The position numbers and the translations under genes are program-made. From Acidimicrobiia bacterium (GTDB lineage: Bacteria > Actinomycetota > Acidimicrobiia > Spongiisociales > ZC4RG35), in contig DATKEA010000126.1 in NCBI GenBank assembly GCA_035544615.1, positions 50-64,049 of the forward strand: a stretch of 64,000 nucleotides of DNA, given 5' to 3'. This document shows, piece after piece, positions 5,455-20,431 of this stretch. Position 1 is the first letter of the stretch; each line of letters starts with the position of its first letter. The notes beneath the pieces are model-generated. The model was given only the letters and a program-made list of their open reading frames with translations. It did no database searches and was not told the origin of the DNA.

Positions 5455-5689
5455 GGCCCTCCAGCTCGTCCTTGGCTCCCTGTAGTGCGACCAGGACGTC
5501 TTTGTGCTCCACTCCGGTTGGGGACAGTGACGCCACCGTCTCCAACCACTCGCCCGTGCGCATGGATGACAGGGCTGACCGGACTGCTTCCTGCGTCAGG
5601 TTCGAAACATTGAGCCCAGCGTCTCTGGCTTCATTGGCCAGTTGGTCGGGTAGGTATACGTTGACTCTCGCCATGCGCATAGTATACAC
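5447..5689 (-). CDS. vapB: RHH antitoxin (VapB type)
   Basis: MARVNVYLPDQLANEARDAGLNVSNLTQEAV is an RHH fold pattern. The true start may be 5674 (MARV...). Confidence 0.75.
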   Translation of the reverse strand: MYTMRMARVNVYLPDQLANEARDAGLNVSNLTQEAVRSALSSMRTGEWLETVASLSPTGVEHKDVLVALQGAKDELEGLG

Positions 5690-5704
5690 ACATTCGAGCG
5701 GCCA

Positions 5705-5715
5705 GATCTTTCCCT
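5705..5715 (+). repeat. R5b, degenerate family copy between the two vapBC pairs
   Basis: atctttccctg. Its flank gcctgagctggagtggag is shared with the flank of R10b at 42601-42618. Confidence 0.5.
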
Positions 5716-5738
5716 GTTGCCTGAGCTGGAGTGGAGAT

Positions 5739-6146
5739 CTACGGGTTGGTTCGGTAGTGGCGGACGGTCACACTAGGTAGATCTGCGAATGCTGACTCGT
5801 CGGCGGTGAGCACCATGCGCTTTGTGGCGCGAGCTGTGGCCGCGATGAGCAAGTCGTGCGCGCCGCGAGGATGCCCTGTCTGCCTTACCGCCACCAGAAG
5901 CTGAGCATGTTCGAAAGCGACATCCCGGTCATAGGAGATTATTGGAACCGAGGCGAGGATCTCGTCCACGTAAGCCTGTCGGTCGGCCTTGGCATGCGGG
6001 GATGCGAGTTCGACCCCCACGACCAATTCGGCGACTGTGATTGCCGCAATTGCTATGTCGTCGTCTTCGTGGATCAGATCGTCGAGATCGATGTCGCCTC
6101 GCTCGGCGTCGATCAGGAAAGTCGTGTCGAGAAGCACGACGCTCAT
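5739..6146 (-). CDS. vapC: PIN-domain toxin (VapC type), second pair
   Basis: VVLLDTTFLIDAERG..., AITVAELVVG and LIAATARA...VLTADESAF are PIN motifs. A 4-nt overlap links it to the antitoxin gene. Confidence 0.85.
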   Translation of the reverse strand: MSVVLLDTTFLIDAERGDIDLDDLIHEDDDIAIAAITVAELVVGVELASPHAKADRQAYVDEILASVPIISYDRDVAFEHAQLLVAVRQTGHPRGAHDLLIAATARATKRMVLTADESAFADLPSVTVRHYRTNP

Positions 6147-6431: not shown

Positions 6432-6449
6432 ACGTGTCCCGTTTCCCTA
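6432..6449 (+). repeat. R6, family copy
   Basis: acgtgtcccgtttcccta. Confidence 0.85.
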
Positions 6450-6629: not shown

Positions 6630-9600
6630 CTAAAAAATGCAGAACCCGTTGATCTCGATGCTTGCGGAGCCGGATGCCCGACCGTCGTCGACCTGGAACA
6701 CGAAGACGTCGTCATTGCCCGCGTTTCCGGCGGTGTAGTCGACCGTCGCCTCGGTGTCCGAGATCTTCTCGATGGCGCTGAGGGTGCCGAATTCGGGTCC
6801 ATCGATGATGGTGAACTGGAGCGGGTCTCCGTCGGCATCCGACCCGGTGAGGGTGATCGGGACCGTGGAGTTGCAGCTGACCTGCGTCGACCCGGGGTTC
6901 GCTATCGGCACGGCGTTGACCGGGTTGATCTCGATGGTCACCTGGGCTGAGGTGGTGCCCCCATTGCCATCGACCACGGTGTAGTCGAAGCTGTCCGACG
7001 TGGTAGCCGAGTCGTCGTGGCTGTACAGCACCACGTCTCCCATGATCTCGACCGAGCCGTGGGCCGGTGCCGAGGCAGCCACGATCGTCAAGGGGTCGTC
7101 TTCGGGGTCACTGTCATTGGCGAGCACGGCGATTCGGACTTGACCACCCTCGTTCACCGTCTCTTGGTCGTCCACGGCAAGGGGGCGGTCGTTCACCGGC
7201 GAAACCTCTATGGTCACCGTGGCTTCGTTCGAAGTGGCCTCACCGTCGGAGACCTGGTAGGTGAACGAATCCTCGCTGGACTCCGAACCATTGTGCCTGT
7301 AGGTGATCGCACCATCTGGGTTCAGCGTCACATCTCCGTTCTCAGGGAGTCGCACGATCTCGATGTTCAGGTCGTCCGAGTCGGGGTCGGTGTCGTTCGC
7401 CAACACCGAGATGAGGACCGAGCTCCCTTCCGACACTGTCTCGAAATCATCGGCCGCGGTAGGCGGCCGGTTCTGCTGGATTGTGGTGGTGGATGAACTC
7501 TCGACGGTCGTCGTGGTGGCGCCGGCGGTTGTGGTGGGTGCATCGTCGAGGCGGACCCCGACGCCTGTCAACTCGATGGTCTCCTCTCCCTCATCGGTGG
7601 TGATGCGCAATTCGCCTTGTGCCTCGCGTCTCGTCTCGCCAAAGTCGAGAATCGGGGCGAAGGTGACCCATAGGGCGCACTCCGACTCTGGTTCGACCCG
7701 AATTCGGACGAGGGCATCAGCCGGCTCGACCTGCTCGAACCGGCACTCGGGGACCTCCGGACCGTCCGCGACCGGCTCGGATTCGATGGCGGGCTGACCT
7801 GGGGCGCTACAGATCGGCCCTTCAGGTGCGACGACGCAAAAAGCCGGATCCCCAACGATCTCGATCCGGTGGACCGTGAGCTCCTCTTCCTCGTTGCTGA
7901 AGGTCTGGTACCGGTGACTGACGCTTCCAGTGGCCACCTCACCAAAATCGAGAACCGCGCCGGCCTCGGTCGTCTGGGCCCAGACGCCGATCACCATCAC
8001 CGCCCCGGCCAGGACCGCCCATCTCCTCCAAGTCGTGGCGAAACCGCCGGTGTGACCAAGGTTATGGGTGCTGATCGCGGCCCCAGGCATGTCCGCTGCG
8101 CGGCGCCGCAAGCGGAGGGCCCCCCTGAGACTGCGGCGTGCCTCTCGCTTGTTGCCCAGCATCAGCTGGCGCGTGCCTGCTTCGTGAAGCGCCCAGGCTT
8201 CGGCGCCTTTCGCACCGAGAGACCGAGCCGACCTCAGCGCTTGGTTGGTCGCCACTCCCCATGAGTCCCAGGCTCCCATCACCGCAAGGTGGGGAGCCAA
8301 CGCCATGGCCAGCAGCAGCACCCCTCGATGCCGGTCGCGTTCGACGCCCCACTCGAGCACCCGCAGGATGAACGCCCGCGATTCCTCGAGGCGGCGTGGG
8401 GCCGCCTCAGCGATCCATTGCACAGTCACTTCGAAGATCTCGCCGCGAATCGCTTCGAGGTCGACCGCCTCGACGATGGGCAGGTATTCGACGCCGGCGA
8501 GACGGTGGGCGGGCCCGTCGCCTATGACGTGACCCGACATCATCAGCCCGGTCATCCGTTCGGCAGACACACCGAGCCGCATCATCATCTCGCCTGGTGT
8601 GGCCAGATCGGGCCCGAAGGCCGCCAGGATCCCAAGCACCCGGTGATCGTCTTCGCTCAGGTCGTTTCCTGGGTCAGCAGCCGTCTCCTGCTTCCTGCCG
8701 AGCCACCCGGCCAATGAGAGCCCGCTTCCCCACGCTTCGTGAGCCAGCTTGGTGATCATCCCTGGGCCCGTCCCGTCCCGTCGGCAGAGCGCCACAACAG
8801 CGTCGGCCAGCTCAGAGGGAACTTCCTGGCCATAGCGAGCCCCGAACAGGGCGACGATGTCGGCGGGCTTCTCGAAGTCGGTCAGCGGGACCGCCTTTGT
8901 ATAGGCGAGAGGGCCGAGGTCTCTCTCTTTTGCCTCGTCGGAGGTGAGAACGAACGTGGAGCCGGGCACGTCGGCACGTAGACGGTCGACCTCATCGGCG
9001 CGGAGTCGCACACCGTCGACGAACACCAGAGCCCTCCTCGCCTGGAGGTCTGCTCTCAGCGCGGCATCGTCTGGGACGAAGGTGTGGTCGGCGACCCGGT
9101 ACAGCTCCGACCACAATGCCCGAAGCAGATCCCCTGCCCGCGGCCACGCCTCGCCTTCGATGTAGACGCCGACTCCATCGGGGTAACGCTCGATTGAGGC
9201 GTTGGGATCGTGGGCGACTCGGCGCAGCACGGACGTCTTTCCGATTCCGGGGACCCCCGACACACCCAGCAAGGACTCACCGGACCCGATTGCAGCCTTG
9301 AGACGGTCGACTACGTCGTTGCGATCCACGAACGGGTCCGGAGGGCGTGGGCCGTTGCTTGCCTGCAGCGGATGCCGTCTCATCGGCGTCGCCCGTGCGG
9401 TCAGATCGAATCGGCCCCCGTACCGGCTTCCGGTGTAGGTGCGACCGTTGGTGCCCTGAACCCTGATCAATTCACCTTGGACCCGAGTGACGTCGTGGGA
9501 GACCAGCTGCCCTAGCTCTTCGGGGCTTCGGAAGCGTCGGATGGTCACCCCCTCCTCGACGTGGCCGATCCGGTTGAGGAACGCCGACAGCTCCGGCTCA

Positions 9601-9938
9601 CGTTGGGCGGCGATCTTCTCGTAGATCAGACAAGCGACTCCGCTTCGGCGGGCCGCGTCGAATTCGTCGACGGTGTAAGCACCCTGGGTTTTCCAGAACA
9701 AACCCAGGTACACGTCGCTGTTGTAGAGGGCGTCGAGATAGGTCTGACGGGGCGGACCGGGACCCGCTCCTGCATCCACCTCATACAGCCAGGGGGCGTA
9801 GCCTGCCGCGGCGAGTACATCGCGGACTGCGGCGCGCTCAGGGGCCAACTCGGACATGCGTGAGCTGATGAAGACCCGCAGCGCATCGGCGGCTGCCACC
9901 TGCCTTCTTTCGACCGCGGGCACCTCTACGGATGTCAT
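6630..9938 (-). CDS. DUF4062-like (TIR-like) + NB-ARC/STAND P-loop NTPase + TM helix + extracytoplasmic Ig-like and cadherin-like repeats
   Basis: - Start ATG 9938, with GGAG 9-12 nt upstream
- RVFISSRMSELAPERAAV head
- Walker A GVSGVPGIGKTS
- TM helix WRRWAVLAGAVMVIGVWA after an Arg-rich stretch
- Then LDFGEV... and three to four ANDTDPDSDD / VNDRP repeats. Confidence 0.8.
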   Translation of the reverse strand: MTSVEVPAVERRQVAAADALRVFISSRMSELAPERAAVRDVLAAAGYAPWLYEVDAGAGPGPPRQTYLDALYNSDVYLGLFWKTQGAYTVDEFDAARRSGVACLIYEKIAAQREPELSAFLNRIGHVEEGVTIRRFRSPEELGQLVSHDVTRVQGELIRVQGTNGRTYTGSRYGGRFDLTARATPMRRHPLQASNGPRPPDPFVDRNDVVDRLKAAIGSGESLLGVSGVPGIGKTSVLRRVAHDPNASIERYPDGVGVYIEGEAWPRAGDLLRALWSELYRVADHTFVPDDAALRADLQARRALVFVDGVRLRADEVDRLRADVPGSTFVLTSDEAKERDLGPLAYTKAVPLTDFEKPADIVALFGARYGQEVPSELADAVVALCRRDGTGPGMITKLAHEAWGSGLSLAGWLGRKQETAADPGNDLSEDDHRVLGILAAFGPDLATPGEMMMRLGVSAERMTGLMMSGHVIGDGPAHRLAGVEYLPIVEAVDLEAIRGEIFEVTVQWIAEAAPRRLEESRAFILRVLEWGVERDRHRGVLLLAMALAPHLAVMGAWDSWGVATNQALRSARSLGAKGAEAWALHEAGTRQLMLGNKREARRSLRGALRLRRRAADMPGAAISTHNLGHTGGFATTWRRWAVLAGAVMVIGVWAQTTEAGAVLDFGEVATGSVSHRYQTFSNEEEELTVHRIEIVGDPAFCVVAPEGPICSAPGQPAIESEPVADGPEVPECRFEQVEPADALVRIRVEPESECALWVTFAPILDFGETRREAQGELRITTDEGEETIELTGVGVRLDDAPTTTAGATTTTVESSSTTTIQQNRPPTAADDFETVSEGSSVLISVLANDTDPDSDDLNIEIVRLPENGDVTLNPDGAITYRHNGSESSEDSFTYQVSDGEATSNEATVTIEVSPVNDRPLAVDDQETVNEGGQVRIAVLANDSDPEDDPLTIVAASAPAHGSVEIMGDVVLYSHDDSATTSDSFDYTVVDGNGGTTSAQVTIEINPVNAVPIANPGSTQVSCNSTVPITLTGSDADGDPLQFTIIDGPEFGTLSAIEKISDTEATVDYTAGNAGNDDVFVFQVDDGRASGSASIEINGFCIF

Positions 9939-10465
9939 CTCGAGTGGCTCCGGTGCGCGAAGGGGCGTTTCGCTCTGCGCCCCAGGACGTTGTGTTTCGG
10001 AAGCGGATGCTTCTTGCCAGGGTCGTGACGACTCATGATCTCTCCCGGCGCCCCGTGCTCCGTCGGATGCGATTCCGTGGGGCCCCGCCTCTATGGCGAG
10101 GTCCCCAAACCTACGGTTTCTGAGACGACATGCATATAGGGGTTGTTCCCCCAATAGATGCCCAAAGGGGACGTGAGATACTCGTTTGTGGCGAGGGCGT
10201 GAGCGACGAGGAAGCCGACGACGTGGCCGCATGTCTGGCGGCGGCCGGGGGCCCGAGTCGCCCCCGAAAGTAGGTTGGTCGAATCGGACTGAGATCCTGG
10301 CTGAAACAAGGACTGGCCAGCCCGAAGATCTTCATCAGCTATCGCAGGAGCGATGCGGGGGGACATGCGGGCCGGCTTCAAGCCGCCCTGGCCGACTACT
10401 ACGGCGACGGGGCCGTCTGGCTGGATCACGCCGACATCGGCCCGGGACAGGGATTCGCCGAGGCG

Positions 10466-12340
10466 TTGGAAGAGGCGCTGACCCACAGTGACGTCCTGCT
10501 GGCGATCATCGGGCCCGACTGGCTGACCGCAGAAAAGGATGGTCGTCGGCGTCTCGACGACCCCGACGACTGGGTGAGACGTGAGCTGGTCACCGGTCTC
10601 GGTCTGGGACGGGTCCAGGTGATTCCGGTGCTGGTCGGCGAGGCCCCCCTGCCCGTGCCCGAAGAACTGCCCGAGCCGCTGCAACGCATCCCCGCGCTGC
10701 AGGCGATAACGGTGCGTCCCGATCGGTTCGAGGACGACGTCGACCATCTCACCGAGCGAATCGGGGGATGGCGTCGTCGATGGCACGGCTTTCCCCTCTG
10801 GATGTGGCTGCTGGGGGCGGCTCTGGTGATCGGAGGGCTCACCGCGGCCCTCGTGGTGAGAGGCAACCGGCCCCCGCTGGTCGCCACCGAACAGGTCTCG
10901 GCCATCGGCGGAGTCCAGACCGAGATCGACATCGCACCCTGGGTCACCGATGAGGACCCGGCCGGGCTCGTCTTCTCCCCCGCCAACGAGACGGCTCATG
11001 GCGGGACCGTCGTCGACCTGGGCGGGGGGAAGGTCATCTACACCGGCCCGGGGAGGTACAGCGGACCCGACTCGTTCCAATTCACGGTCAGCGACAAGCA
11101 GGGGGCGACAACGAGCGGGACCGTGAACGTGACGGTCAGCCTGGGCCAGATCGGTGGTGATTTCAACGTGGCGGTGGCGAAGTTCTCGGCCACCGACCAG
11201 AACTCCGGCGCCAGTCTCTCCGAGGCCCTGTTCGACCAGATCGCCATCACCCTCGACGATGTGACCGATGTGAACATCGAAGTGGCCGGGCCAGACGAGG
11301 TGGGAGACCTGGCCGGCGACACTCCCGAAAGCCGAGCCGAAGCCGCCGCCGACCTGGCCGATCGGGTCGGTGCAGACGTGGTGGTCTACGGGACCCTCGA
11401 GATCCTCGAAGGCCTGTCGAACCTGTCTGCGGAGTTCTACTTGTCGAGTCGGGGTCTGACCGGTGCCGAAGAGCTGGCCGGGGTCTACCCGCTCGACAGC
11501 GTGCAGCTTGCCACCACCGACCCGATCGCCTTGAGCCAGGCCGCCTCCCGCTTTCTCGAGCCGAAGATCATCGCCCTCACCGAACTCGCCATCGGGCTCA
11601 GCCACTACCAACTCAACGAATACGCCGAAGCTGAGGAGCTGTTCGCGGAGGCGGAGGCCTCCTGGCCTAGCTCGGCAGGTCGCATCAACGGGCGGGAGGT
11701 CGTCTTGAGTCTGCTCGGCAATGTCAGCGGTCTGCAGAACGACCTCGACGCCGCCGACGACTACTACACCCAGGCCCTCGATCTCGACCCCGAGTACTCC
11801 CAGGCCCGCTTCGGAGCGGCCGAGATGCGGTTCCTGCGATCGATGGGATCGCTCTGCGGAGGAACCGGGGAGGCAGACGTGGCCGGACTGGAAGATGCCA
11901 TCCGCCAGTTCGAGGAGCTGATCGACCTCCCTGCACCTCCCCTCGCCTTTCACCCCGAACGTGCCCGGCTGGAGATCGGACGGATCTACGCGTGCCTCAC
12001 ACAGAACGGCGTCGACCGCCGTGATGAGGCCAGAGAGATCATCGAAGCCGTCATCGCCGACATCTCCGGCGAGACCAGACTGCGCGACCTGGAGGCCGAG
12101 GCCCACTTCGCTCTCGGCGCCTACCACCTGCTGAACAGGGATCGGCCGGCGGCCCTCGCCGAGTTCAACACCGCGGTCGAAACCACGGTGAATCCCATCC
12201 GCAAGAGCGGCTTCTATCTCTCCCTGGCCGAAATCCATCTTTGTCTGCTCGACCAGTCCGACCTGGCCGAGACCTACCTCCGTGCGGCCGAAGACCTGGC
12301 CGGGGAGCCTATGGAACCGATCGTCTGCGCCGCACCGTGA
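10466..12340 (+). CDS. TIR domain + TM helix + cadherin-like domain + TPR repeats
   Basis: The tracked TTG 10466 cuts the TIR domain. The in-frame upstream sequence from 10325 reads KIFISYRRSDAGGHAGRLQAALADYY... A DDWVRRE motif and TM helix FPLWMWLLGAALVIGGLTAALVV follow. The true start is unresolved (see finding). Confidence 0.75.
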   Translation: MEEALTHSDVLLAIIGPDWLTAEKDGRRRLDDPDDWVRRELVTGLGLGRVQVIPVLVGEAPLPVPEELPEPLQRIPALQAITVRPDRFEDDVDHLTERIGGWRRRWHGFPLWMWLLGAALVIGGLTAALVVRGNRPPLVATEQVSAIGGVQTEIDIAPWVTDEDPAGLVFSPANETAHGGTVVDLGGGKVIYTGPGRYSGPDSFQFTVSDKQGATTSGTVNVTVSLGQIGGDFNVAVAKFSATDQNSGASLSEALFDQIAITLDDVTDVNIEVAGPDEVGDLAGDTPESRAEAAADLADRVGADVVVYGTLEILEGLSNLSAEFYLSSRGLTGAEELAGVYPLDSVQLATTDPIALSQAASRFLEPKIIALTELAIGLSHYQLNEYAEAEELFAEAEASWPSSAGRINGREVVLSLLGNVSGLQNDLDAADDYYTQALDLDPEYSQARFGAAEMRFLRSMGSLCGGTGEADVAGLEDAIRQFEELIDLPAPPLAFHPERARLEIGRIYACLTQNGVDRRDEAREIIEAVIADISGETRLRDLEAEAHFALGAYHLLNRDRPAALAEFNTAVETTVNPIRKSGFYLSLAEIHLCLLDQSDLAETYLRAAEDLAGEPMEPIVCAAP

Positions 12341-12355
12341 CGAGGCGTATGGTTG

Positions 12356-13345
12356 ATGGCCAATCGGCGAGGAGAGTCGGGGATGAACCATTCTGCCGCA
12401 GCCACAGCGATCGCGCTCCTCTTGGTTGTCGCCTGCGGTGGTGACGCCGGGTCTACCACCACCTCCTCAGCGACCACCTCGACCAGCGTGCCCGGGACAT
12501 CGACTTCGACAGAGGCGGGTTCGACGACACAGCCGCCGACCACCCTCGACGGGACGGGCACCACCGGCACAACCGGCACCCCGGACACATTGCCGCCCGT
12601 CGTCGCCCAGGTCGCGTTTGCCTTCGCCGCGGGTGATGACCCGCGCCTGCTGGTTCGGGTGTCGGTGGGAGAGACTCCTGACGGTCCCTGGTCACCGGCC
12701 GGCAACTCCGATCCGACCCCGACGCTCTCCGGGCCGTCCTATTGGGTCCGTTTCGAGATCACAAATGTCGACCGACTCAATGCGGTGCTGACGGACCTCG
12801 ACATCTCCGGTTTCGAGGTCGGCTCGCCCCTCGGCGGAGATGTGTGTGAGCTCGATGCCCCGCTCCCGAAGGACGGCGAGGCGACATGCATCGCTGGCGG
12901 GTCGGATGGATTCCCGGTGCAGCCGGGACCCAATGACGTCGACTTCAACGTGTCAGGCGTCGGTCCTAGGCAGGGTGAGCCCGAGCGGTGGTTCGACCCG
13001 CCGGTCCCGACGAGTCTGGAGTTCACCGGCGCTCGGAACCGCTTCGTGCTGGTGTTCGACACGACCGAAGGAATACGGGTCGACGGCACTGCCGACTCCT
13101 CTCAATTCGAGATCGACATCGGAGGCCTGTCCGGAACCGTGAGCGTGGATTGCTCTGGGGGGAGCCCCTTTGGTGGGACACCTGGGCTGAAGGCGTATGT
13201 GATCGAGAACTACTCGGCCTCTGGGGACCGGGTAGGGGGATGCTCGGAGATACCCAGCGCGGTATTCGACTTCTTTGCCGACTTCGACAGCGACGAGGTC
13301 TATTTCTACGAAGGCGCCGTCACCGGCACCACCTCTGGCGGCTGA
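12356..13345 (+). CDS. secreted lipoprotein of unknown function
   Basis: Signal peptide with lipobox LLLVVAC-GG, then a Thr/Ser-rich linker. The start could be 12353, 12356 or 12383. Confidence 0.7.
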   Translation: MANRRGESGMNHSAAATAIALLLVVACGGDAGSTTTSSATTSTSVPGTSTSTEAGSTTQPPTTLDGTGTTGTTGTPDTLPPVVAQVAFAFAAGDDPRLLVRVSVGETPDGPWSPAGNSDPTPTLSGPSYWVRFEITNVDRLNAVLTDLDISGFEVGSPLGGDVCELDAPLPKDGEATCIAGGSDGFPVQPGPNDVDFNVSGVGPRQGEPERWFDPPVPTSLEFTGARNRFVLVFDTTEGIRVDGTADSSQFEIDIGGLSGTVSVDCSGGSPFGGTPGLKAYVIENYSASGDRVGGCSEIPSAVFDFFADFDSDEVYFYEGAVTGTTSGG

Positions 13346-13398
13346 GGCATCACGCCGGGGTCTCGAGCGCGTAGCCTCGGCACCGGAAAGGGGACTCG

Positions 13399-14370
13399 AT
13401 GGGCCACATCACTTTCGTTCACGGCATCATGAACCAACCGTCGACGGATCGGCTGCTCGCCATCTGGAGGAGGGACTTGGCGGACGGGGGCGACGGTGTC
13501 GATCTCGACGTCTACGGGGTCACCTCGTCGATGGTCTACTGGGCCGACGTCATGTACCCCGCAGCCACCGACGCCGGTGGCCCGGGCCAGGAGTCGATCG
13601 AATACGAGGGGATCGAGCCCGGCGCCCTCACCGAGGTCGACGAGTCCTACATCGACGACGCCGACGGTGCCGAGAGAGAATTCCTCGAGTCGATGATCGA
13701 AAGCTACGACCTCGACCACCCCGACGAGCCCGAAGGAGCCGAGGCAGGCCCTCCCGATCAGGCGGCCTCACCGTCGCCGGGCGCCGAGGCCAGGATGGCT
13801 GCAGCATCAGCCCTCGAGGCGGTTCCCCTCCCGTGGTTCATCAAACGACCCCTGATGAAGGTCCTGCTCCGCGACGTCCACCACTATCTGTTCAACACCA
13901 GTCACTCCCCGCGATCCGGCTCCACCTACAAGGTGCGCGACGAGGTGAGAAACCGGTTCGTTGGCGACCTGGCCGCGGTCGAGGACGGACCTCACATCGT
14001 GGTGGCACACAGTCTCGGCACGGTGGTCGCCTACGACTGCCTCAAACGGGTGGCGGACACCAAGAAAGTCGACATGCTCATCACCCTCGGCACCCCCCTC
14101 GGCATGTCCGAGATCCAGCACAATATGCGCCCAGAATGGTCTAAGGACGATGGATATCCCGACGGTCTGTCCCACTGGGTGAACGTGGCCGACACCATCG
14201 ACCCGGTCTGTGTCGCCGATCCGTTCATCGCCAACGACTACAAACGCAAGAAGGCCAGTGCGGTGAAAGACGAGACGGTGAACAACGGCGGGCTGTTCCG
14301 CCATCCGTCCGGCAAGTACTTCCGCCAGTCGGTGGTCCAGGAGGCGGTGCGAAGAGGGCTCGGTCTTTGA
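13399..14370 (+). CDS. alpha/beta-hydrolase (lipase/esterase-like), cytosolic
   Basis: GGAAAGGGGA RBS. ITFVHGI oxyanion-hole HG motif and VVAHSLGT nucleophile elbow (GxSxG). No signal peptide. Confidence 0.7.
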   Translation: MGHITFVHGIMNQPSTDRLLAIWRRDLADGGDGVDLDVYGVTSSMVYWADVMYPAATDAGGPGQESIEYEGIEPGALTEVDESYIDDADGAEREFLESMIESYDLDHPDEPEGAEAGPPDQAASPSPGAEARMAAASALEAVPLPWFIKRPLMKVLLRDVHHYLFNTSHSPRSGSTYKVRDEVRNRFVGDLAAVEDGPHIVVAHSLGTVVAYDCLKRVADTKKVDMLITLGTPLGMSEIQHNMRPEWSKDDGYPDGLSHWVNVADTIDPVCVADPFIANDYKRKKASAVKDETVNNGGLFRHPSGKYFRQSVVQEAVRRGLGL

Positions 14371-14373
14371 GGG

Positions 14374-15942
14374 ATGTCGTTTCTCGACTCCCCACTCGGT
14401 GAGCGGCTGACCGCAAGCCTCGACGCCGGCAAGCCCGATGACATCACAGCGGCCGTCGCCGAGATAGAGGCCAAGATCTGGAGCGGTGCGCTCGACTCGA
14501 TCCAGATCGACGAAGTGCTGGAGACGTTGCAGCGACACCGCCAGTTTCCTCACGTGATCACGATCGCCGACGCCGCGACCGCGGTGGATTCCATCACCAG
14601 CGCCGGTCGTCGTCGTTATTGCCAGATCCTCATCGAATCCGGCGCCCTGCATGCGGCCGAGCTCGCCTGCAGAGAGCTGCTCGAGGTGGCCGACAGCGCC
14701 ACAGAGCGAGGGGAGGCGCTCGGGCTCCTGGGGCGAATTTGCAAGCAGCGATTCGTCATCGGGGGCAGACCCGAGGACTTGTTGGCCGCCATCGACGCCT
14801 ACCGCTTCGCCTACGAGGGCGGCACCGATCGGGCCTGGCACGGGATCAACCTGTTGGCGCTCACCTGCCGCGCCGCCCGGGAGGGAATTACGGTGCCCAA
14901 TGCGGTCGACACCCGCTCCCTGACCACAACCATTCTCGCGGAGGTGAGAAAGACCGACCCCGAGGTACGCCAGGTCTGGCACCGTGCCACCGAGATCGAG
15001 GCACTTCTCGCTTCGGGAGACGATCCGAGTGCGCTCGACGAAGCGGTTGTCGCCGCAGGACAACTCGCCGCCAGTCGCAGTGTCCGCGCCTTCGAGTTGG
15101 AAAGCCTGCGCCGGCAATTGACCGACATCTGGCAACTGGAGTCGCATCACCCCCTCCTCGTCGCCATCGCCGATCAGAAGCTGCATCTCGGCGGCAGGGC
15201 GGATGTCGAGCTGCCCGAGTCGCCCCAGCAACTGGAGAAGATCTTCGGGACCGCGCTACCCGTGGGATACAAACATCTGATGCGGGGTCTGCACTGCGCC
15301 GAGTCGGTGGCCAAGATCACCGATGCCTCGGGTGAGCCCTGGGGCACCGGATTCCTGGTGGCAGGGAGTCTGATCCACCCCGACTTCGGGGAGGCACCGG
15401 TCCTGGTGACCAATGCCCATGTCTGCAGCCCCGAGCCGGGAGTGGGCAAGCTCCTTCCCGGCGAGGCCCGTGCCGTGTTCGATGTGACCAAGGCGGTTGA
15501 CGGGTCGGGTCTGGTCCTCACCGGCTTCGAGTGTCTTTGGAGCTCGCCGCCGGGCACCTGTGATGTGACGTTTCTCCGCTTGTCGGGGCCCGGGGCCGTC
15601 ATCACCCAGCCGATCGAGGTCGCCCAGATTCCCCAGCCCGTCACCGAGGGCGCCTATGTGTACGTCATCGGACATCCGGCCGGCGGGGGGCTCAAGTTCT
15701 CGATCCGGGGCAACGACCTTCTCGCTTACGACGCCGAGATGTTCAAGGTGCACTACACCGCCCCCACCGAGGGGGGCAGCTCTGGAAGCCCGGTGTTCAA
15801 CCAGGCATGGCAGCTGATGGCGGTGCATCATGCCGGAGACTCCAAGATGCGCCGTCTTGACGACCCCTCGGCCACCTATCAGGCCAACGAGGGGATAACG
15901 ATCAAGTCGATCAGAGAGGAGTACGAGCGCAGTGGACGATGA
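14374..15942 (+). CDS. N-terminal TPR-like (DUF4071/TRAFs-binding-like) domain fused to a trypsin-like serine protease
   Basis: GLLGRICKQRF...AIDAYRFAY...WHGINLLAL resembles DUF4071. The C-terminus has GTGFLV...LVTNAHV (His) and TEGGSSGSPVF (Ser). The start is 4 nt after the upstream stop. Confidence 0.8.
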   Translation: MSFLDSPLGERLTASLDAGKPDDITAAVAEIEAKIWSGALDSIQIDEVLETLQRHRQFPHVITIADAATAVDSITSAGRRRYCQILIESGALHAAELACRELLEVADSATERGEALGLLGRICKQRFVIGGRPEDLLAAIDAYRFAYEGGTDRAWHGINLLALTCRAAREGITVPNAVDTRSLTTTILAEVRKTDPEVRQVWHRATEIEALLASGDDPSALDEAVVAAGQLAASRSVRAFELESLRRQLTDIWQLESHHPLLVAIADQKLHLGGRADVELPESPQQLEKIFGTALPVGYKHLMRGLHCAESVAKITDASGEPWGTGFLVAGSLIHPDFGEAPVLVTNAHVCSPEPGVGKLLPGEARAVFDVTKAVDGSGLVLTGFECLWSSPPGTCDVTFLRLSGPGAVITQPIEVAQIPQPVTEGAYVYVIGHPAGGGLKFSIRGNDLLAYDAEMFKVHYTAPTEGGSSGSPVFNQAWQLMAVHHAGDSKMRRLDDPSATYQANEGITIKSIREEYERSGR

Positions 15943-16982
15943 CGCCATCGCCGCCGCGCTCCTCGCGACCCGCGCCACGTAGAGAAAGGACACCTGCGAT
16001 CCGGGTCTTCCTGAGCTACCGGAGGGACGACACGGCAGGACGTGCCGGCCGGCTTCACGATGCGCTGGCGGCACGCCTGGGAGCGCGCAACGTGTTCATG
16101 GATGTTGCGACCATCGCGGTCGGCACCGATTTCGCCGACCAGGTGGATCGGGCGATCGACAACAGCGAAGCGTCGTTGATAGTGATCGGGCGGAATTGGC
16201 TTCGGCTCCAAGATGCTGCTGGAAACCGGCGTCTCGACGACCCGCGAGACCACGTCAGATCCGAGGTGCGCACTGCCCCGAAGTCGAACCACCCGGTGGT
16301 GCCGGTCCTGGTGGACGAGGCAGCGCTGCCATCAGAAGCGGAGCTTCCAGAGGATCTTGTCTCGTTGGCTCGCCGTCAGGCCGTCGAGCTGCACGACGAG
16401 ACCTGGGCCCAGGACGTGGAGATGCTGATCCGCCGTCTCGAAGGCAAGGACGTGGTCGCTTCGCGCCGTCGTCTCCCCCCCTTGGCCATCGGGTTCGTCG
16501 TGTTGGCCATCGCTGGCGTCGCGGCCTGGCGTGGGCTGGCAGGCACAGACGACGGTGCAACGCCGAGATGCGAGTCGGACCCAAACGTATCGCTGACCAC
16601 CCTGGAGGTCGGGCCCGAAGCCACCGCGATGGACAACTCCGGCGACAGATCGATCCGTTACACCGTGTCAGGAGCAGACTTCACAGCTTCGGGATCGCAT
16701 TGGCTGGTGGTCCTCGAGGTCGAGGCCTCCAATGAGACTACGGCGAGCGGCAACCAGCAAGGCCTCTACTTCAGTACTTCTTCATTCCAGGCGCTGCTGG
16801 TCGATGGCTTTGCCGCCGAGCCCGCGTGCTTCACGCCGATCGCAGGCAATCGCGACAGTGTCGACCCCGGTCAAACAGCGAGCGGCCTGGTGGGATTCGA
16901 GACGACCAGAGACCCAACGGACTCAGTTCTGATTCTGGGGACGGAGGGCGGCCAGATGATCGAGGTCACCGGCGGCTCGTGA
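15939..16982 (+). CDS. TIR domain + TM helix + extracytoplasmic beta-rich domain
   Basis: IRVFLSYRRDDTAGRAGRLHDALAARLG...VFMD and a DHVRSE motif. TM helix LPPLAIGFVVLAIAGVAAW follows. ATGA overlap with the protease gene. Confidence 0.8.
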   Translation: MTPSPPRSSRPAPRRERTPAIRVFLSYRRDDTAGRAGRLHDALAARLGARNVFMDVATIAVGTDFADQVDRAIDNSEASLIVIGRNWLRLQDAAGNRRLDDPRDHVRSEVRTAPKSNHPVVPVLVDEAALPSEAELPEDLVSLARRQAVELHDETWAQDVEMLIRRLEGKDVVASRRRLPPLAIGFVVLAIAGVAAWRGLAGTDDGATPRCESDPNVSLTTLEVGPEATAMDNSGDRSIRYTVSGADFTASGSHWLVVLEVEASNETTASGNQQGLYFSTSSFQALLVDGFAAEPACFTPIAGNRDSVDPGQTASGLVGFETTRDPTDSVLILGTEGGQMIEVTGGS

Positions 16983-16990
16983 CGAATCAC

Positions 16991-17020
16991 CGGATCCTCG
17001 CCATCGCCGACGAGGATCCG
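16991..17020 (+). other. perfect 10-bp inverted repeat (cggatcctcg N10 cgaggatccg) between the TIR and SLOG-like genes
   Basis: Read directly. It lies 9 nt after the stop at 16982 and 22 nt before the GTG at 17043. Possible attenuator or processing hairpin. Confidence 0.4.
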
Positions 17021-17042
17021 CATGGCCCGGTAGGCTCCCTCG

Positions 17043-17588
17043 GTGGCGGTGGTCCTGTTCTCGGGTCACATGGTGGATGCACCCAACCGCATTCAACCTC
17101 GCTTCCCACCAGAGCGGGTAGCCCAGGTCCGACGCGATATCGCCGGTGAGCTCTGGCTAATCGACGACCCCGATGCCAGGGCGATTTCGGGCTTGGCCTG
17201 CGGAGGCGACCTGTTGTTCGCTGAGGAATGGCTGAAGACCGGCCGAGTACTACAGGCCTTTCTTCCCCGCCCGGTAGAAGAGTTCCTGGACGAGTCGGTG
17301 CGTTTTGCCGGCGAGGAGTGGGTCACGTCGTTCCACCGGGTGGTCACCCACGTGATGGTGAGTGTGGTCGGCCCTGACGACGAAATGCTCCGCCTGGAAG
17401 ACCCACATACCGCCAACAACCTCCGAATGCTCGAGTCCGCCCGCCGGCAGGGCGGATCGATTCACGGTGTGTTCCTCTGGGACGGCAGCGGTGGTGACGG
17501 ACCCGGTGGCACTCAACAGCTCGTCTCCGATGTGCTCGAGGCAGGCGGAAGTGTCACCATTCTCGATCCCAACCCCAGAGGCGGGTGA
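17043..17588 (+). CDS. small Rossmann-like protein, possibly SLOG/LOG/DprA-like nucleotide-binding
   Basis: GTG start forced by an in-frame TAG at 17031. VVLFSGHMVD..., SGLACGGDLLFAEEWL and GGDGPGGTQQLV resemble the GGxGxD and PGGxGT motifs of the SLOG/LOG superfamily. Assignment is tentative. Confidence 0.55.
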   Translation: MAVVLFSGHMVDAPNRIQPRFPPERVAQVRRDIAGELWLIDDPDARAISGLACGGDLLFAEEWLKTGRVLQAFLPRPVEEFLDESVRFAGEEWVTSFHRVVTHVMVSVVGPDDEMLRLEDPHTANNLRMLESARRQGGSIHGVFLWDGSGGDGPGGTQQLVSDVLEAGGSVTILDPNPRGG

Positions 17589-17644
17589 TCCGCGGCGATT
17601 GGCTTGTCGCCGGGATCGGTTTAGCGGACCCAGGGAGATCTTCC

Positions 17645-17660
17645 GGTTCCCGTTTCCCTA
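17645..17660 (+). repeat. R7, family copy with partial right arm
   Basis: ggttcccgtttcccta + ttgcgcgcttgcactcccag. Confidence 0.85.
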
Positions 17661-17804: not shown

Positions 17805-19043
17805 TCAGCTTTGGCCGGCTTCGCGCAAGAGCTGGCGTTCGAGGACGCGGGCGGTGAATCGCGCGCCGAGCACGAACCTGACAACGGGTCCGAATGCCGA
17901 ACCAGATGCGGCGCCCACGAAGTACAGGCCCGGAACCGTCGACTGGAAGCGCCCATCGAGGATCGGGTAGTCGGCGACGGTCTTGATCGCGCTGGCGAGC
18001 GCGGCATCAATGAATCGCAACCGGGCGAGATCGACGCGATAGCCGGTCGCGCAGATGACGTGTTCGGAGCGAAGGGTCGTACGTCCGCTCACGCCTTCGA
18101 ACTCGAGCTCGACCTCGTCGCCGTACGATCTGGCTTTGCGCACGTGGTGATCGAGACGAACCGGGACCTTACCTTCAATGCGCTGGCGCAACCACCACGC
18201 GCCTGCTGGACCAAATGTCGTCGTCGCCAGCCGAACACGCCTTTCCTCCGGCAGCAGGTGAAAAGCCCGCGGCCCGTGCTCGTACAGCCAGCAGCCCATG
18301 CCGGTGCACAGCCCTCCGACCGGGCGGCGAAGTCGTTTCCAAAGCGGACGATCCAGCGGATGTGGGGGCGGGTTCCACACGATCGAGAGAGCGCGTGCGG
18401 CGATCTCGACGGTTGCGCCGTGCTCATGCAGCAAAGCCGCGTTCTCGAGAGCAGACTGTCCGGCGCCGATGACGGTCACTCGGCGCCCCGCGAACTCCGC
18501 AGGATGGAGTTGACTTCCGGTGGCCCCGGAGATGCCTCCGCGCACCGACGACGAATGCGAGAAGAGCTCTGGCGGCAGCGCAGCGAACTCCGCCGGAAGA
18601 TGCCGGAAGTGTGTGAGGCCGACCGCAACTACGACTTGCGCGGCGCGGAGTGTTTCTCCGGTTGCGAGATCGAGCACGAAGCCGCCGGAGTCTTTGGCCA
18701 GGCTGACGACTTGAGTGTCCTCGACGGGCACTTTCGCCTGCTCGACGAACCACTCGCCATAGCCGCTGTATACCTCGAGCGGGACAGGAACACCCCACCC
18801 GCCCACGTCGAAGCCGTGGTCCTCGCAGTAGCGCTCAAGAGTCAGCTCGCCGCCCGGGTCGGCGAGGTTCGAAGCGAAGCCTTCGGATCGCAACCACATG
18901 CCTTCCGGCATGTGGTTGCGCCATGTGTGCATCGGTGTGCCAAACAGCCGGTAATCGACTCCCCGTTGCGACAGGTGCGAAGCGATCGACAGGCCGTAAG
19001 GACCGGCACCGATGATCGCGACTTCCAGTCGCCGCGACATCAT
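17805..19043 (-). CDS. FAD/NAD(P)-binding monooxygenase (N-hydroxylating flavoprotein-like)
   Basis: VAIIGAGPYGLS and a second dinucleotide motif VTVIGAGQSALE. ATGA overlap with the upstream ATP-grasp gene. Confidence 0.8.
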   Translation of the reverse strand: MMSRRLEVAIIGAGPYGLSIASHLSQRGVDYRLFGTPMHTWRNHMPEGMWLRSEGFASNLADPGGELTLERYCEDHGFDVGGWGVPVPLEVYSGYGEWFVEQAKVPVEDTQVVSLAKDSGGFVLDLATGETLRAAQVVVAVGLTHFRHLPAEFAALPPELFSHSSSVRGGISGATGSQLHPAEFAGRRVTVIGAGQSALENAALLHEHGATVEIAARALSIVWNPPPHPLDRPLWKRLRRPVGGLCTGMGCWLYEHGPRAFHLLPEERRVRLATTTFGPAGAWWLRQRIEGKVPVRLDHHVRKARSYGDEVELEFEGVSGRTTLRSEHVICATGYRVDLARLRFIDAALASAIKTVADYPILDGRFQSTVPGLYFVGAASGSAFGPVVRFVLGARFTARVLERQLLREAGQS

Positions 19044-20308
19044 TGAGGATGCCCTGGTGGCGCGAGTCGCTGCTTCAGGCTGCGCGCCAGCCAAGCCACG
19101 TCGGAAGCCACGGCAACGAGGGCGGGTCGCAGGTCGCGCGCATCGAAATAGTCGTAGCTCGTCGGCTTGCGGAAGTCCTTGAAGAAAGATGACACGGCAT
19201 TGCGCGATGCAACCGTGTCCGGAGCGCCCTGCTGGCGCGCGTTGTCGAGAAGCCACTTGACATCTGCGGCGAGCCAGCGCACACGCACGCCGGTGCGATA
19301 CGACGACTTGCCGGGGTCAGGCAGCTCATTGGTAGCCCAGGCGCGTACAAGACCCGGGAAGTCGATTCCGGCGCGCACCGCGCACTCGATCGACGCCGAC
19401 AATCGAGGATTGATCTCCATCAGCACAGGCGTGCCATCAGCGTCGCGACGGAACTCGACTTCGGCGTATCCATCGAGCTCGAGTTCGGAGACGAGTCGTC
19501 GAGCATCCGTCGTCGCGTCCTCGGGCAGGGGCACGCTCTCGCGCAGGACGGACTCGCCGCCGAGGATCGGAAGCATGCGGTGCGCAACCTGAGCGAACTC
19601 GCCATAGAACGACCCGCGCGCACGGACGAAGCTGACGGCCAGGCGTTCGCCGGGGATCCAATCCTGGACGAGCACCACAGCGCCGAGATGCAACATCGCC
19701 CGGAGTTGCTCACTCGCTTCGGATGCCGAGCGCGCGAGCCGCACCCCGAGGCGGCGACGCTCTTCTCCTGCAACAACCCATGACCGCTCCGGCTTCAAGA
19801 CCGCGGGCATGGGAATCGAGGTGACTGCGTCCCTTATCTCGGCTTCGTCAGCGACCGTCACCGAGACAGGAATCCGGATTCCAAGCCTGCCCGCGAGCTC
19901 GAGCGTCGTTCGCTTGTCGTTCGCTGCGTCGAGCGGCTCGGATCGGGCGAGAGCAAGCGCACACTTCGCCTCCACCTCGGCCCGGCGCTCCTGGATCGCC
20001 GCGATCGTTCCGTCGTGAGTCGGGATGACGACAACGTCTTTCGAGCTCGATGATGCGAGGTCGACGAGTTGTTGCACCATCGCCTTCGGATCGACATCGC
20101 GATCCTCGACGCGCGCCGTTGCCGCGCACCAGCGCGACGAAAAGGCGGGAACACCACGGGTTGACACACACTCGACTGCGCCGACCGTGTATCCGCCCGC
20201 CCCGAGCGTCCGCACGGCAACCAATGCCTGCCGCAGCTTCGCGTCGGTGAGAATCACGTCGATCGGCCGCGCCGCTGATCGCTTCGTGATCCAGCGCCCT
20301 GGCGCCAT
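19040..20308 (-). CDS. ATP-grasp domain ligase
   Basis: PAVLKPERSW..., LVQDWIPGE and YAEVEFRRDADGTPVLMEINPRLS are ATP-grasp motifs. The start at 20308 (MAPGRW...) is chosen over 20413 and is uncertain. Confidence 0.75.
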   Translation of the reverse strand: MAPGRWITKRSAARPIDVILTDAKLRQALVAVRTLGAGGYTVGAVECVSTRGVPAFSSRWCAATARVEDRDVDPKAMVQQLVDLASSSSKDVVVIPTHDGTIAAIQERRAEVEAKCALALARSEPLDAANDKRTTLELAGRLGIRIPVSVTVADEAEIRDAVTSIPMPAVLKPERSWVVAGEERRRLGVRLARSASEASEQLRAMLHLGAVVLVQDWIPGERLAVSFVRARGSFYGEFAQVAHRMLPILGGESVLRESVPLPEDATTDARRLVSELELDGYAEVEFRRDADGTPVLMEINPRLSASIECAVRAGIDFPGLVRAWATNELPDPGKSSYRTGVRVRWLAADVKWLLDNARQQGAPDTVASRNAVSSFFKDFRKPTSYDYFDARDLRPALVAVASDVAWLARSLKQRLAPPGHPQ

Positions 20309-20431
20309 CAGGCGCGCCGCACGTCGAACTCGTCGTCGCTGCCGGCGGCCGTTTGCTCTCGGGCAACCAGGTGTGACGTCACTGAGTGTGGAGCAGGGGC
20401 GGCGACGACCCACTCCTGGAGTGGTCCGAAC

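Follow-up and report, generated by a model that had tools for sequence, protein, structure and literature searches.

Gene content and organization of the locus

The seven genes P1 to P7 (Table 1) lie in a 64-kb window of an Acidimicrobiia genome, that is, the whole stretch of DNA analysed, and the operon formed by P2 to P7 is set in a region of cell-surface polysaccharide and S-layer genes. Small blocks make up a patchwork in the surrounding region, and toxin-antitoxin genes occur close by. All seven open reading frames are present as given in a preliminary description of this DNA, and the domain assignments made there hold by Pfam searches, predicted structures and sequence reading. From P2 to P7, the operon genes are separated by 12, 53 and 3 nt, an ATGA overlap (P5/P6) and 60 nt. 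A scan for promoters and terminators gave nothing useful. The motif TCCCGTTTCCCTA occurs in 12 copies in the window (0.93 expected by chance); two of them, R6 and R7, had been taken as the bounds of the seven-gene cluster. The junction at R7 was compared with the corresponding junction of the related locus L082.

Table 1. Features of the locus, in window coordinates
Feature	Position	Strand	Description
P1	6630-9938	-	DUF4062 (TIR-like), STAND/NB-ARC-type P-loop NTPase, TPR, one TM helix, three Big_9/cadherin-like repeats
P2	10283/10289-12340	+	cytoplasmic SARM1-type TIR, one TM helix, extracytoplasmic Big_9 and TPR
P3	12353-13345	+	lipoprotein, lipobox VVAC (sequence reading)
P4	13399-14370	+	lipase-like alpha/beta hydrolase; putative proenzyme effector
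P5	14374-15942	+	TPR-S (ASK1/DUF4071-like) predicted sensor fused to V8/Spl-type S1B serine protease
P6	15939-16982	+	cytoplasmic SARM1-type TIR, one TM helix, beta-rich ectodomain of ~140 aa
P7	17043-17588	+	stand-alone predicted SLOG-fold protein (YpsA/DprA/LOG-like), 181 aa
P0 remnant	10187-10292	+	frameshifted, ~35 codons of the P0 3' end
Relocating block	10242-17632	+	P0 remnant, then P2 to P7; blastn synteny
Motif copy R6	6437-6449	+	TCCCGTTTCCCTA, exact match; junction marker downstream of P1
Motif copy R7	17648-17660	+	TCCCGTTTCCCTA, exact match; 15 nt past the right end of the relocating block

A widespread hydrolase-protease pair

P4 (1728 homologs) is matched only weakly by the Pfam model Abhydrolase_6 (2e-4), and its predicted structure resembles minimal lipases of the Bacillus LipA type. 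It has the HG motif and serine elbow (HSxG) read earlier from the sequence, together with invariant H8-G9, S205, D265/D268 and H302, which supply Ser, Asp and His. P4 also contains an acidic insert of 67-91 aa, variable in sequence and terminating at the invariant Glu140; Asp and Glu make up 16-34% of the insert versus 12-15% of the rest of the protein, and basic residues are few. In P5, Pfam recognises TPR-S (2.9e-14) and Trypsin_2 (3e-15), and a profile search against PDB retrieved glutamyl endopeptidases (5e-9) and the TPR region of ASK1 (2.7e-5). The protease, whose His and Ser had been described as intact, keeps the full triad (H349, D397 and S470, all in invariant columns) and belongs to the glutamyl-endopeptidase branch, with the Thr and His beside the catalytic Ser retained. 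Based on this family membership and on the composition of the insert, P5 may be Glu-specific and P4 may be its substrate.

The gene immediately before P5 is P4 in 49 of the 80 species-level loci, which come from Actinomycetota, several classes of Pseudomonadota, Acidobacteriota, Bacteroidota, Verrucomicrobiota and other phyla, with a spacing of ~3-12 nt in loci with gene calls. Where P4 is missing, the gene upstream of P5 codes for another potentially lethal enzyme, e.g. Amidase_2, Trypsin_2, SLATT_1 or Metallophos, and in some loci the pair is adjoined by the peptidoglycan hydrolases Peptidase_M15_4 and GH108. This two-gene pair, widespread across bacterial phyla, is the conserved core of the locus, and the position upstream of P5 appears to be a swappable effector slot. 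We found no experimental study of the pair in the literature.

TIR proteins and their linkage to the core

P1, P2 and P6 each cross the membrane once, with the N terminus inside and further domains outside the cytoplasm. Pfam identifies TIR_2, Big_9 and TPR in P2 (TIR_2, 9.5e-14) and TIR_2 in P6 (1.8e-13); in both, the TIR domain is accompanied by one TM helix, which in P2 follows it. The retention of the glutamate region of NAD-cleaving TIRs, noted in the preliminary description, was borne out: the Glu of P6 falls on the catalytic E642 of SARM1 in an alignment of the two TIR domains, and P2 has the same motif, DWVRRE. No ATG, GTG or TTG is found upstream of the TIR core of P2, and its start is non-canonical (ATC or CTG), in a region conserved in L001, L003, L005 and L082. 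In L001, L003 and L005 this start overlaps an upstream gene, P0. Because a canonical start is missing and the overlapping gene has been lost in the window, expression of P2 there is uncertain.

Of the 80 loci, 27 have TIR open reading frames no more than 3.5 kb from P5; their density there is 4.2 times that in the 3.5-10 kb flanks, and the TIR-TM-ectodomain form represented by P6 is found near P5 in 15 of the 80, recurring across unrelated phyla. In about two thirds of the loci (51/80) no TIR gene is present within 10 kb of P4-P5, so that either other inputs besides TIR signalling must exist or the TIR proteins are encoded at distant genomic sites.

A predicted SLOG protein related to TPR-S fusions

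P7 matched no model of Pfam, NCBIfam or PADLOC. Its AF2 model (pLDDT 92) retrieved ShosA, YpsA (TM 0.60) and DprA in Foldseek, and LOG structures were also matched; P7 is thus predicted to have the SLOG fold, as had been proposed from the sequence. The SLOG fold binds 3'cADPR in ThsA. The P7 family comprises 4667 cluster representatives, and 31 of its 37 long members combine the P7-type SLOG with TPR-S in one protein; further fusion partners in such proteins are kinase, TIR, SLATT, patatin and sigma-54 domains. P7 itself is found in 13 of the 80 loci. TPR-S is a predicted sensor of TIR signals and part of a validated type VIII Thoeris effector (bioRxiv 10.64898/2025.12.03.692087), and TPR-S assemblies with YpsA-like SLOG partners are credited, in a passage of bioRxiv 10.1101/2023.05.26.542521, to Burroughs and Aravind 2020.

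Neighbours and limits of the relocating block

P1 is matched by DUF4062 (6e-10), weakly by AAA_16/NB-ARC, and by Big_9/Cadherin repeats (1e-49); PADLOC models, including those of Avs, gave no match. In the relatives that could be checked (L001, L005 and L082-85) the operon has no P1 beside it, and an ortholog with 85% identity is found on L091, where the downstream flank differs. A TIR-NB-ARC-TM-Ig protein, of the same type of architecture, adjoins the core in L075, and TIR-nSTAND1-WD40 proteins flank P4-P5 in other phyla. P1 is a modular gene next to the operon, not inherited together with it. In relatives, the gene upstream of P2 is P0, a multi-TM gene of 522-528 aa, intact in L001, L003 and L005. 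A tblastn search of the window with P0 gave no hit; its remnant was identified by direct reading against the C-terminus of L001 P0. P1 took the place of this ancestral membrane gene. P3, in which Pfam recognises no domain or family, is seen only in an Acidimicrobiia clade (L001-L005, L082-85) and follows P2 wherever the contig covers the P2 region. P6 is present or absent among close relatives, being missing in L005 and L082-85.

By blastn synteny, the block from the P0 remnant to P7 occupies three different sites in close relatives. In L082 and L084 it lies, without P6, between the equivalents of window positions 39317 and 41955, and the L001 and L003 copies are next to the sequence that corresponds to window positions 51350-52876. 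The preliminary description held that the whole 11.2-kb stretch between R6 and R7 moves as one unit; the unit that relocates between close relatives is instead this shorter block, which excludes P1. A seven-gene evolutionary unit bounded by the two motifs is not supported, given the absences of P1 and P6, the restriction of P3, the displacement of P0 and the limits of the block. The idea that the genes form one system stands in part: the TIR, TPR-S-protease, hydrolase and SLOG components are linked by conserved gene order, enrichment and domain fusion, but the seven genes are not inherited together.

Comparison with known systems

The earlier statement that the locus matches no named system is supported: PADLOC and NCBIfam gave only generic TIR hits, and none of their Thoeris effector models match the operon proteins. 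Precedents exist, however, for TPR-S in TIR signalling and with SLOG. The first is type VIII Thoeris (ThsB TIR with ThsI, a CMP hydrolase fused to TPR; also BcTir/BcTpr), in which a TIR gene likewise lies beside an effector with Aravind-type TPR (TPR-S), the proposed receiver of TIR-made cADPR, to which the effector responds (10.64898/2025.12.03.692087; 10.1101/2023.05.26.542521). In the present operon an S1B serine protease takes the place of the CMP hydrolase, an alpha/beta hydrolase partner is encoded upstream and a SLOG protein separately, and the TIR proteins are membrane-anchored with ectodomains. Type IV Thoeris, which combines TIR with a caspase-like protease effector and N7-cADPR as the signal (10.64898/2025.12.03.692087), shares the logic proposed here, leading from TIR signal through protease to cell death. 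The protease here, however, has the chymotrypsin/V8 fold, the candidate sensor is TPR-S with SLOG, and a second enzyme, P4, is paired with it.

The order of P4 and P5 resembles protease-activated pairs (HamM with protease-HamA, Avs1, canu), in which a trypsin-like protease cuts the disordered insert of a proenzyme nuclease, encoded immediately before it, and thereby activates the nuclease (PMC12799240). In place of the MBL nucleases of those pairs, the operon encodes as putatively cleaved cargo a lipase-like alpha/beta hydrolase, and the protease is fused to TPR-S and not to Hachiman, Avs or Lamassu proteins. In VMAP systems, too, every alpha/beta hydrolase comes with a peptidase, the pairing with caspases being obligate (PMC7159879). 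The predicted fold of P7 is shared with type I Thoeris ThsA (SIR2-SLOG), YpsA and ShosA, but P7 stands alone, lacking an effector domain, and its family is characteristically fused to TPR-S. P1, with its N-terminal TIR-like domain, P-loop STAND NTPase and helical repeats, resembles STAND/NLR-like receptors (Avs, bacterial NACHT, TIR-nSTAND-WD40 of Kaur et al. 2020), except that a TM helix and, beyond it, cadherin-like ectodomains follow.

Proposed mechanism and alternatives

These comparisons are best read as pointing to a variant of TIR/TPR-S (Thoeris-like) signalling, with the mechanism inferred. We give roughly even chances to a scenario in which the plus-strand operon is a Thoeris-like TIR signalling and cell-suicide system around the widespread P4-P5 executioner module. 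P2 and P6 would sense a cue via their variable extracytoplasmic domains, and their cytoplasmic TIR domains would cleave NAD+ into an ADP-ribose-derived signal. This signal would be read by the TPR-S of P5 together with P7, activating the V8-type protease domain, which would cut the acidic insert of P4 and convert the proenzyme into an active hydrolase. Active P4 may then attack membrane lipids, so that the cell is killed or arrested, presumably in defence. P3 would be a clade-specific accessory of P2, and P1 a separate, exchangeable sensor cassette with its own ectodomain, which may feed the same pathway. The dispensability of P6 in close relatives and the presence of P7 in only 13 of the 80 loci count against this chain.

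Alternatively, independent modules may have been juxtaposed in a variable island. P1 would then be a STAND receptor acting on its own, P2-P3 and P6 would be self-contained NAD+-depleting TIR NADases, and P4-P5, either alone or joined by P7, would form an autonomous pair in which TPR-S directly recognises a protein or peptide. Proteins are the usual ligands of TPR domains, and this counts against nucleotide sensing by TPR-S, and the homologous ASK1 region retrieved from PDB is a protein-binding module. The 51 loci without a nearby TIR gene, the gain and loss of P1, P6 and P0 among close relatives, and the patchwork region with its toxin-antitoxin genes fit such a juxtaposition as well. We nevertheless regard it as rather unlikely, considering the TIR enrichment near P5, the recurrence of the TIR-TM-ectodomain architecture beside the pair in unrelated phyla, the fusion of TPR-S to a nucleotide-binding SLOG fold in most long family members and to TIR in some, and the presence of a TPR of this kind in a cADPR-responsive Thoeris effector.

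It is less probable still that the locus serves non-immune envelope surveillance or programmed cell death, with the ectodomains of P1, P2 and P6 and the lipoprotein P3 monitoring the surface (damage, kin contact or glycan state) and the protease-hydrolase pair remodelling or destroying the envelope in response to stress or in development, and not against phage. Conflict systems typically show such a patchy distribution, with relocation and swappable effectors, each of the nearest characterised relatives of the components acts against phage (Thoeris types IV and VIII, ShosA, protease-nuclease pairs), and no developmental genes are linked, even though all three TIR or TIR-like proteins share the N-in, single-pass topology with extracytoplasmic domains, the operon sits among surface polysaccharide and S-layer genes, a peptidoglycan amidase (Amidase_2) can fill the effector slot, Peptidase_M15_4 and GH108 adjoin the pair, and such domain sets have been connected with multicellular or social bacteria (Kaur et al. 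2020; PMC7159879). Least plausible is a purely regulatory P4, acting either in a chaperone-like way or as an esterase that forms or breaks down a small-molecule ligand for TPR-S, with P5 killing by indiscriminate cleavage of cellular proteins: the type IV Thoeris protease does cleave such proteins broadly and P4, with its full catalytic triad, could act on a small ester, but the unrelated lethal enzymes found elsewhere in its slot fit a cargo or effector role better than conserved regulatory chemistry, and its acidic insert, variable in sequence and with an invariant Glu at its end, is similar to the inserts that gate protease-activated nucleases.

Gene content and layout of the locus

All seven ORFs reported in the preliminary description are present, and its observation as a whole is confirmed with respect to ORFs, Pfam domains, the SLOG fold and the copies of a short motif. 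P1 is encoded on the minus strand, and P2–P7 form a plus-strand operon in which consecutive genes are separated, in order, by 12, 53 and 3 nt, an ATGA overlap and 60 nt. The G+C content of the window is ~65%, and the closest relatives of P5 come from Acidimicrobiia MAGs. The TPR-S domain of P5, an ASK1/DUF4071-like TPR sensor domain, is described by PF20308, the sister model of which is PF13281 (formerly DUF4071). Scans for promoters (1 promoter-like site versus 1.1 expected, at chance) and terminators (9 terminator-like sites versus 5.0 expected, near chance) left the operon ends unmarked.

Genes of the cluster and copies of the short motif in the window
Feature	Position	Strand	Content
P1	6630-9938	-	DUF4062, weak STAND-type P-loop (AAA_16, NB-ARC), TM helix, three Big_9/cadherin repeats (Pfam)
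P2		+	TIR_2, Big_9, TPR (Pfam)
P3		+	lipoprotein; no match to Pfam models
P4	13399-14370	+	weak Abhydrolase_6, under its cut-off (Pfam)
P5	14374-15942	+	TPR-S (PF20308) and Trypsin_2 (Pfam)
P6	15939-16982	+	TIR_2 (Pfam)
P7	from GTG 17043	+	no match to Pfam models
Motif copies	253, 295, 1642, 1682, 2802, 3605, 4993, 6437 (R6), 17648 (R7), 39420, 41908, 42565		TCCCGTTTCCCTA

Downstream of the in-frame stop at 10271, no ATG, GTG or TTG codon precedes the TIR core of P2; judging from the sequence, the gene likely starts at ATC 10283 or CTG 10289. Conservation of this start region extends to four relatives (L001 5851-5900, L003 1600-1650, L005 5910-5960 and L082 5907-5960), and together with the window (10271-10330) this makes five P2 orthologs without a canonical start upstream of the TIR domain. 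The conserved ATC sits 8 nt past GAAAGTAGG, and the Leu codon that follows it varies between genomes (CTG, TTG or CTC). In public annotations, P2 begins at an internal TTG, giving a 624-aa product from which the TIR domain is lost.

Conservation of a two-gene core

We used tblastn and profiles built in this analysis on a sample of 80 species-level genome loci anchored on P5 homologs. P4 lies directly upstream of P5 in 49 of these loci, coming from Acidimicrobiia, Gamma-, Alpha- and Betaproteobacteria, Acidobacteriota, Bacteroidota, Verrucomicrobiota, Mycobacterium and others, and a P7 homolog is found in 13. A TIR ORF is present anywhere in the locus in 29 of the 80 and within 3.5 kb of P5 in 27. 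The density of TIR ORFs is 0.79 per 10 kb in this 3.5-kb zone versus 0.19 per 10 kb further out. The TIR-TM-ectodomain form occurs within 3.5 kb of P5 in 15 loci, 10 of them outside the Acidimicrobiia clade. While the domain calls of the preliminary description and its failure to match the locus to a named system stand, the seven-gene unit that it proposed is replaced by a two-gene core, P4-P5, with modular sensors.

In several phyla, large TIR-nSTAND1-WD40 proteins are encoded next to the core, and in one locus (L075) the core is flanked by a TIR-NB-ARC-TM-Ig protein with a P1-like build. In loci that lack P4, the position upstream of P5 is taken by another potentially lethal enzyme (Amidase_2, a second Trypsin_2, SLATT_1, Metallophos or an HExxH protein). 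In locus L086 (3426-13905), P4 and P5 precede a Peptidase_M15_4/PG_binding_1 gene, a gene of 177 aa that aligns with P7 (about 70% nucleotide identity) and a TIR-TM gene; the other side of P4-P5 holds a TIR/DUF4062 gene in divergent orientation and an nSTAND1-WD40 gene. Extra stand-alone TPR-S proteins, convergent to P5, are encoded in two further loci (L087 11563-14755 and L089 11653-13002).

Cultured Sinorhizobium, Agrobacterium and Rhizobium carry homologous loci on plasmids, so the model is directly testable. The locus on megaplasmid pK101b of the cultured rhizobium Sinorhizobium sp. K101 (NZ_CP104132.1, record coordinates 192164-207660) offers a tractable experimental model: its order is a TIR gene, an opposite-strand autotransporter outer-membrane gene, a 185-aa hypothetical gene, GH108, P4, P5 and a 1422-aa TIR gene, so that two TIR genes flank P4 and P5 homologs annotated in RefSeq as "hypothetical protein" and "serine protease".

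The hydrolase P4 and the protease P5

P4 has at least 1728 homologs. Among 26 diverse ones, invariant residues include H8-G9 (the HG oxyanion motif), the H204-S205-x-G207 elbow, D265/D268 and H302, giving P4 the nucleophile elbow, Ser-Asp-His triad and HG motif of a lipase-like alpha/beta hydrolase. Residues 55-140 form an insert varying in length and sequence, behind which lies the invariant segment E140-x-(V/I)-PLPW...LLRDVHHYLFN. The insert is acidic: Asp and Glu make up 16-34% of its residues versus 12-15% in the rest of the protein, and Lys and Arg about 4% versus about 12%. The structural model of P4 (pLDDT 80, with low confidence inside the insert) resembles minimal LipA-type lipases (structure match with probability about 1, E 3e-3).

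The first 240 residues of P5 match the TPR region of human ASK1. Its protease triad, His349/Asp397/Ser470, is invariant among homologs, and the nearest PDB sequences to the protease domain are staphylococcal glutamyl endopeptidases (5e-9). The enzyme is probably of the S1B, V8/Spl type, with Glu specificity putatively assigned from the family match. A phage origin was rejected, as an IMG/VR scan with the P5 profile returned only weak matches, confined to the protease.

Membrane TIR proteins and the SLOG protein P7

When the TIR domain of P6 was aligned to SARM1, its glutamate fell on the catalytic E642, and P2 has the same motif, DWVRRE, which bears out the earlier claim that both TIR domains retain the glutamate region. 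P1, P2 and P6 all have an Arg-rich stretch before a single TM helix, which places their N-terminal domains in the cytoplasm and their C-terminal domains outside. A recent common ectodomain for P1 and P2 was rejected, since the similarity is only about 30% and of the generic Big_9 kind. The same Big_9 type that forms these ectodomains occurs in a protein encoded at window 24546-25886, in which a Big_9/cadherin-like domain accompanies a calcineurin-like phosphoesterase. A metagenome scan with P1 matched one short contig.

None of the 552 P7 homologs has a Pfam domain. The N-terminal VLFSGHMxD is conserved in the family, indicating that GTG 17043 is the true start, and ACGGD and GDGPGGT are further conserved motifs. 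The assignment of P7 to SLOG proteins, previously made by motif, is borne out by these glycine-rich motifs together with an AlphaFold model (pLDDT 92) for which Foldseek gave probability 1.0 to ShosA, YpsA (TM 0.60) and DprA, with LOG-like proteins also matched. The P7-type SLOG family comprises 4667 cluster representatives. TPR-S is also present in 31 of 37 long family members, and other fusion partners among these are protein kinase, TIR, SLATT, patatin and sigma-54 ATPase domains. In two loci (L039 and L046) a single protein adjoining P4-P5 unites TPR-S and a P7-type SLOG domain with an N-terminal domain that is uncharacterised, an architecture not seen in the window.

Comparison with known systems

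As the preliminary description had held, the locus fits no named defence system: when the seven proteins were scanned with PADLOC, NCBIfam and PHROGs, matches were limited to generic TIR or protease ones. The TIR cores matched ThsB (26-27 bits) and ThcB4 (34-37 bits, cut-off 220) under the PADLOC/NCBIfam thresholds, and P4, P5 and P7 did not match the effector models of these collections (ThsA, ThsC-L and ThcB families). The locus resembles Thoeris of any type in having TIR proteins with the catalytic glutamate, P2 and P6, but differs in that the adjacent effector is outside the described ThsA, ThsC-L and ThcB families. In type VIII Thoeris, the effector is a CMP hydrolase with a TPR that responds to cADPR (10.64898/2025.12.03.692087); P5 shares the TPR-S, whereas its enzyme domain is Trypsin_2. 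[quoted passage not shown] In the searched part of the supplementary tables of the same TIR survey (10.64898/2025.12.03.692087), none of the effector categories is a trypsin, protease or peptidase.

CBASS and Pycsar were rejected because a nucleotidyltransferase or cyclase domain is absent from all seven proteins (Pfam, PADLOC, NCBIfam). Assignment of P1 to Avs/AVAST was likewise rejected: it matched no PADLOC family at E<=0.1, and its AAA_16, NB-ARC and nSTAND5 matches are under the Pfam cut-offs.

Parts of the arrangement have precedents. Where a nuclease gene lies directly before that of a trypsin-like protease, cutting of a disordered insert unmasks the nuclease (PMC12799240), and VMAP systems pair alpha/beta hydrolases with caspases (PMC7159879). 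Assemblies of TPR-S with TIR, YpsA-like SLOG, patatin, calcineurin and caspase are credited to Burroughs and Aravind 2020 in a citing preprint (10.1101/2023.05.26.542521). We regard the locus as Thoeris-like TIR/TPR-S signalling with three features for which the accessible portions of the literature searched offered no description, namely, a TPR-S-protease with an alpha/beta-hydrolase partner, a slot for exchangeable cargo ahead of the protease gene, and membrane-spanning TIR sensors.

A possible sensor-to-executioner pathway

Given the conservation around P4-P5, we propose that the operon encodes a sensor-to-executioner pathway, a reading that we hold to be about as probable as its negation and every step of which we infer. 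Membrane TIR receptors, possibly also TIR-STAND proteins, would make an NAD-derived signal, which would be read by TPR-S together with the SLOG protein; the V8-type protease would then be switched on and might cut the acidic gate of P4, a lipase-like proenzyme. The main weakness of this pathway is that most P4-P5 loci lack a TIR gene within 10 kb, and the genes could instead be modules that act independently of one another within a variable island. A second rival explanation is envelope surveillance, and a third is that P4 acts as a regulator.

A broader and distinctly doubtful extension of the sensor-to-executioner pathway is that bacteria possess outside-in TIR signalling in the style of Toll-like receptors, running from a surface cue through an NAD-derived messenger and a protease to a lipase zymogen. 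The receptors would be single-pass membrane TIR proteins with hypervariable ectodomains detecting cell-surface events, including P2, P6 and the type with an inserted STAND NTPase represented by P1 and L075. The messenger would act on a TPR-S/SLOG-gated, Glu-specific protease that unlocks the acid-gated lipase zymogen, and P4-P5 would represent a widespread executioner module, so far unnamed, whose cargo slot is swappable. To our knowledge, the described Thoeris sensors are cytosolic. If the proposed sensor-to-executioner model holds, it would add to TIR (Thoeris-like) immunity a protease that activates a lipase proenzyme, would make proteolytic unmasking, recently shown for nuclease-protease pairs, a general cargo-swappable design, and would tie bacterial TIR signalling to outward-looking transmembrane receptors, as in the logic of animal Toll-like receptors. 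It would also give a function to P4-like hydrolases and P7-like SLOG domains (about 4700 cluster representatives), both annotated as hypothetical proteins.

Extent and movement of the block

The complete P2-P7 order is restricted to close Acidimicrobiia relatives (L001-L005, with P6 missing in L005), and P6 is also missing in L082-85. In nucleotide synteny, loci L082 and L084 share two segments with the window at 92-96% identity (33747-39317 and 41955-51339), and the operon block (window 10242-15923 and 17027-17632) lies between their copies of these segments. In L001 and L003, the operon adjoins a homolog of window 51350-52876. The block 10242-17632 thus occupies three sites, all inside a variable cell-surface polysaccharide region, and P1 lies outside it. 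This nucleotide synteny contradicts the idea that the seven genes between R6 and R7 move as one unit. P1 was sought upstream of P2 in the available sequence of L001 and L005 and in L082-85 and is absent; being missing beside the operon in relatives and outside the relocating block, it was rejected as a co-inherited operon member. Since TIR-STAND proteins are repeatedly encoded close to the core, P1 may still serve as an exchangeable sensor.

P2 is preceded in L001, L003 and L005 by P0, a multi-TM gene of 522-528 aa with an NTGA stop-start overlap, of which about 35 frameshifted codons remain in the window. Directly upstream of the relocated operon in L082, a G+C-rich element of about 150 nt that contains inverted repeats is present twice in tandem (positions 5580-5870).

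The short motif

The 13-nt motif, counted with up to 2 mismatches, has 12 copies in the window versus 0.93 expected, 11 of the 12 on the plus strand. Co-oriented copies of the form (CACG)TCCCGTTTCCCTA separate small gene blocks (including GYD, SRPBCC, Rrf2, aminotransferase and two VapC/PIN modules) in a cassette-array-like layout, and the right end of the operon block lies 15 nt before R7. Motif copies are present on both sides of P0-P7 in L001, and none was found flanking the operon in the other relatives. The motif is a junction marker in this lineage and not the intrinsic end of an element. An extended structured element or attC site was rejected, since aligned copies share only a core of about 17 nt; no integrase or recombinase, such as the IntI tyrosine recombinase of an integron-type cassette array, was found in ten large ORFs near the array, and Rfam and tRNA scans of the window gave no RNA element explaining the motif or the block ends. 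PIN/VapC toxin-antitoxin segments (repeat families D3, D5, D8 and D14) are repeated about 36.8 kb apart, at window 5719-6076 and 42601-42798, with 84-97% identity, and a motif copy adjoins each copy.

Wider surroundings

Directly downstream of the block, the minus strand at 17805-20413 encodes a flavin-dependent monooxygenase and a 'Ter operon' ATP-grasp protein (PF15632). An array with an 18-nt period and 8 or more copies of 60-77% identity follows at 20469-20738, inside overlapping ORFs at 20.4-21.4 kb that include a 327-aa minus-strand ORF with no Pfam match. According to domain names taken from the annotation of L082, window 33683-39316 and 42932-51328 contain a Wzy/glycosyltransferase cluster, two LtrA-family genes and a 1265-aa guanylate-cyclase-AAA_16-TPR protein. 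This wider region differs from that of L082 in cassettes exchanged at motif-bearing junctions.
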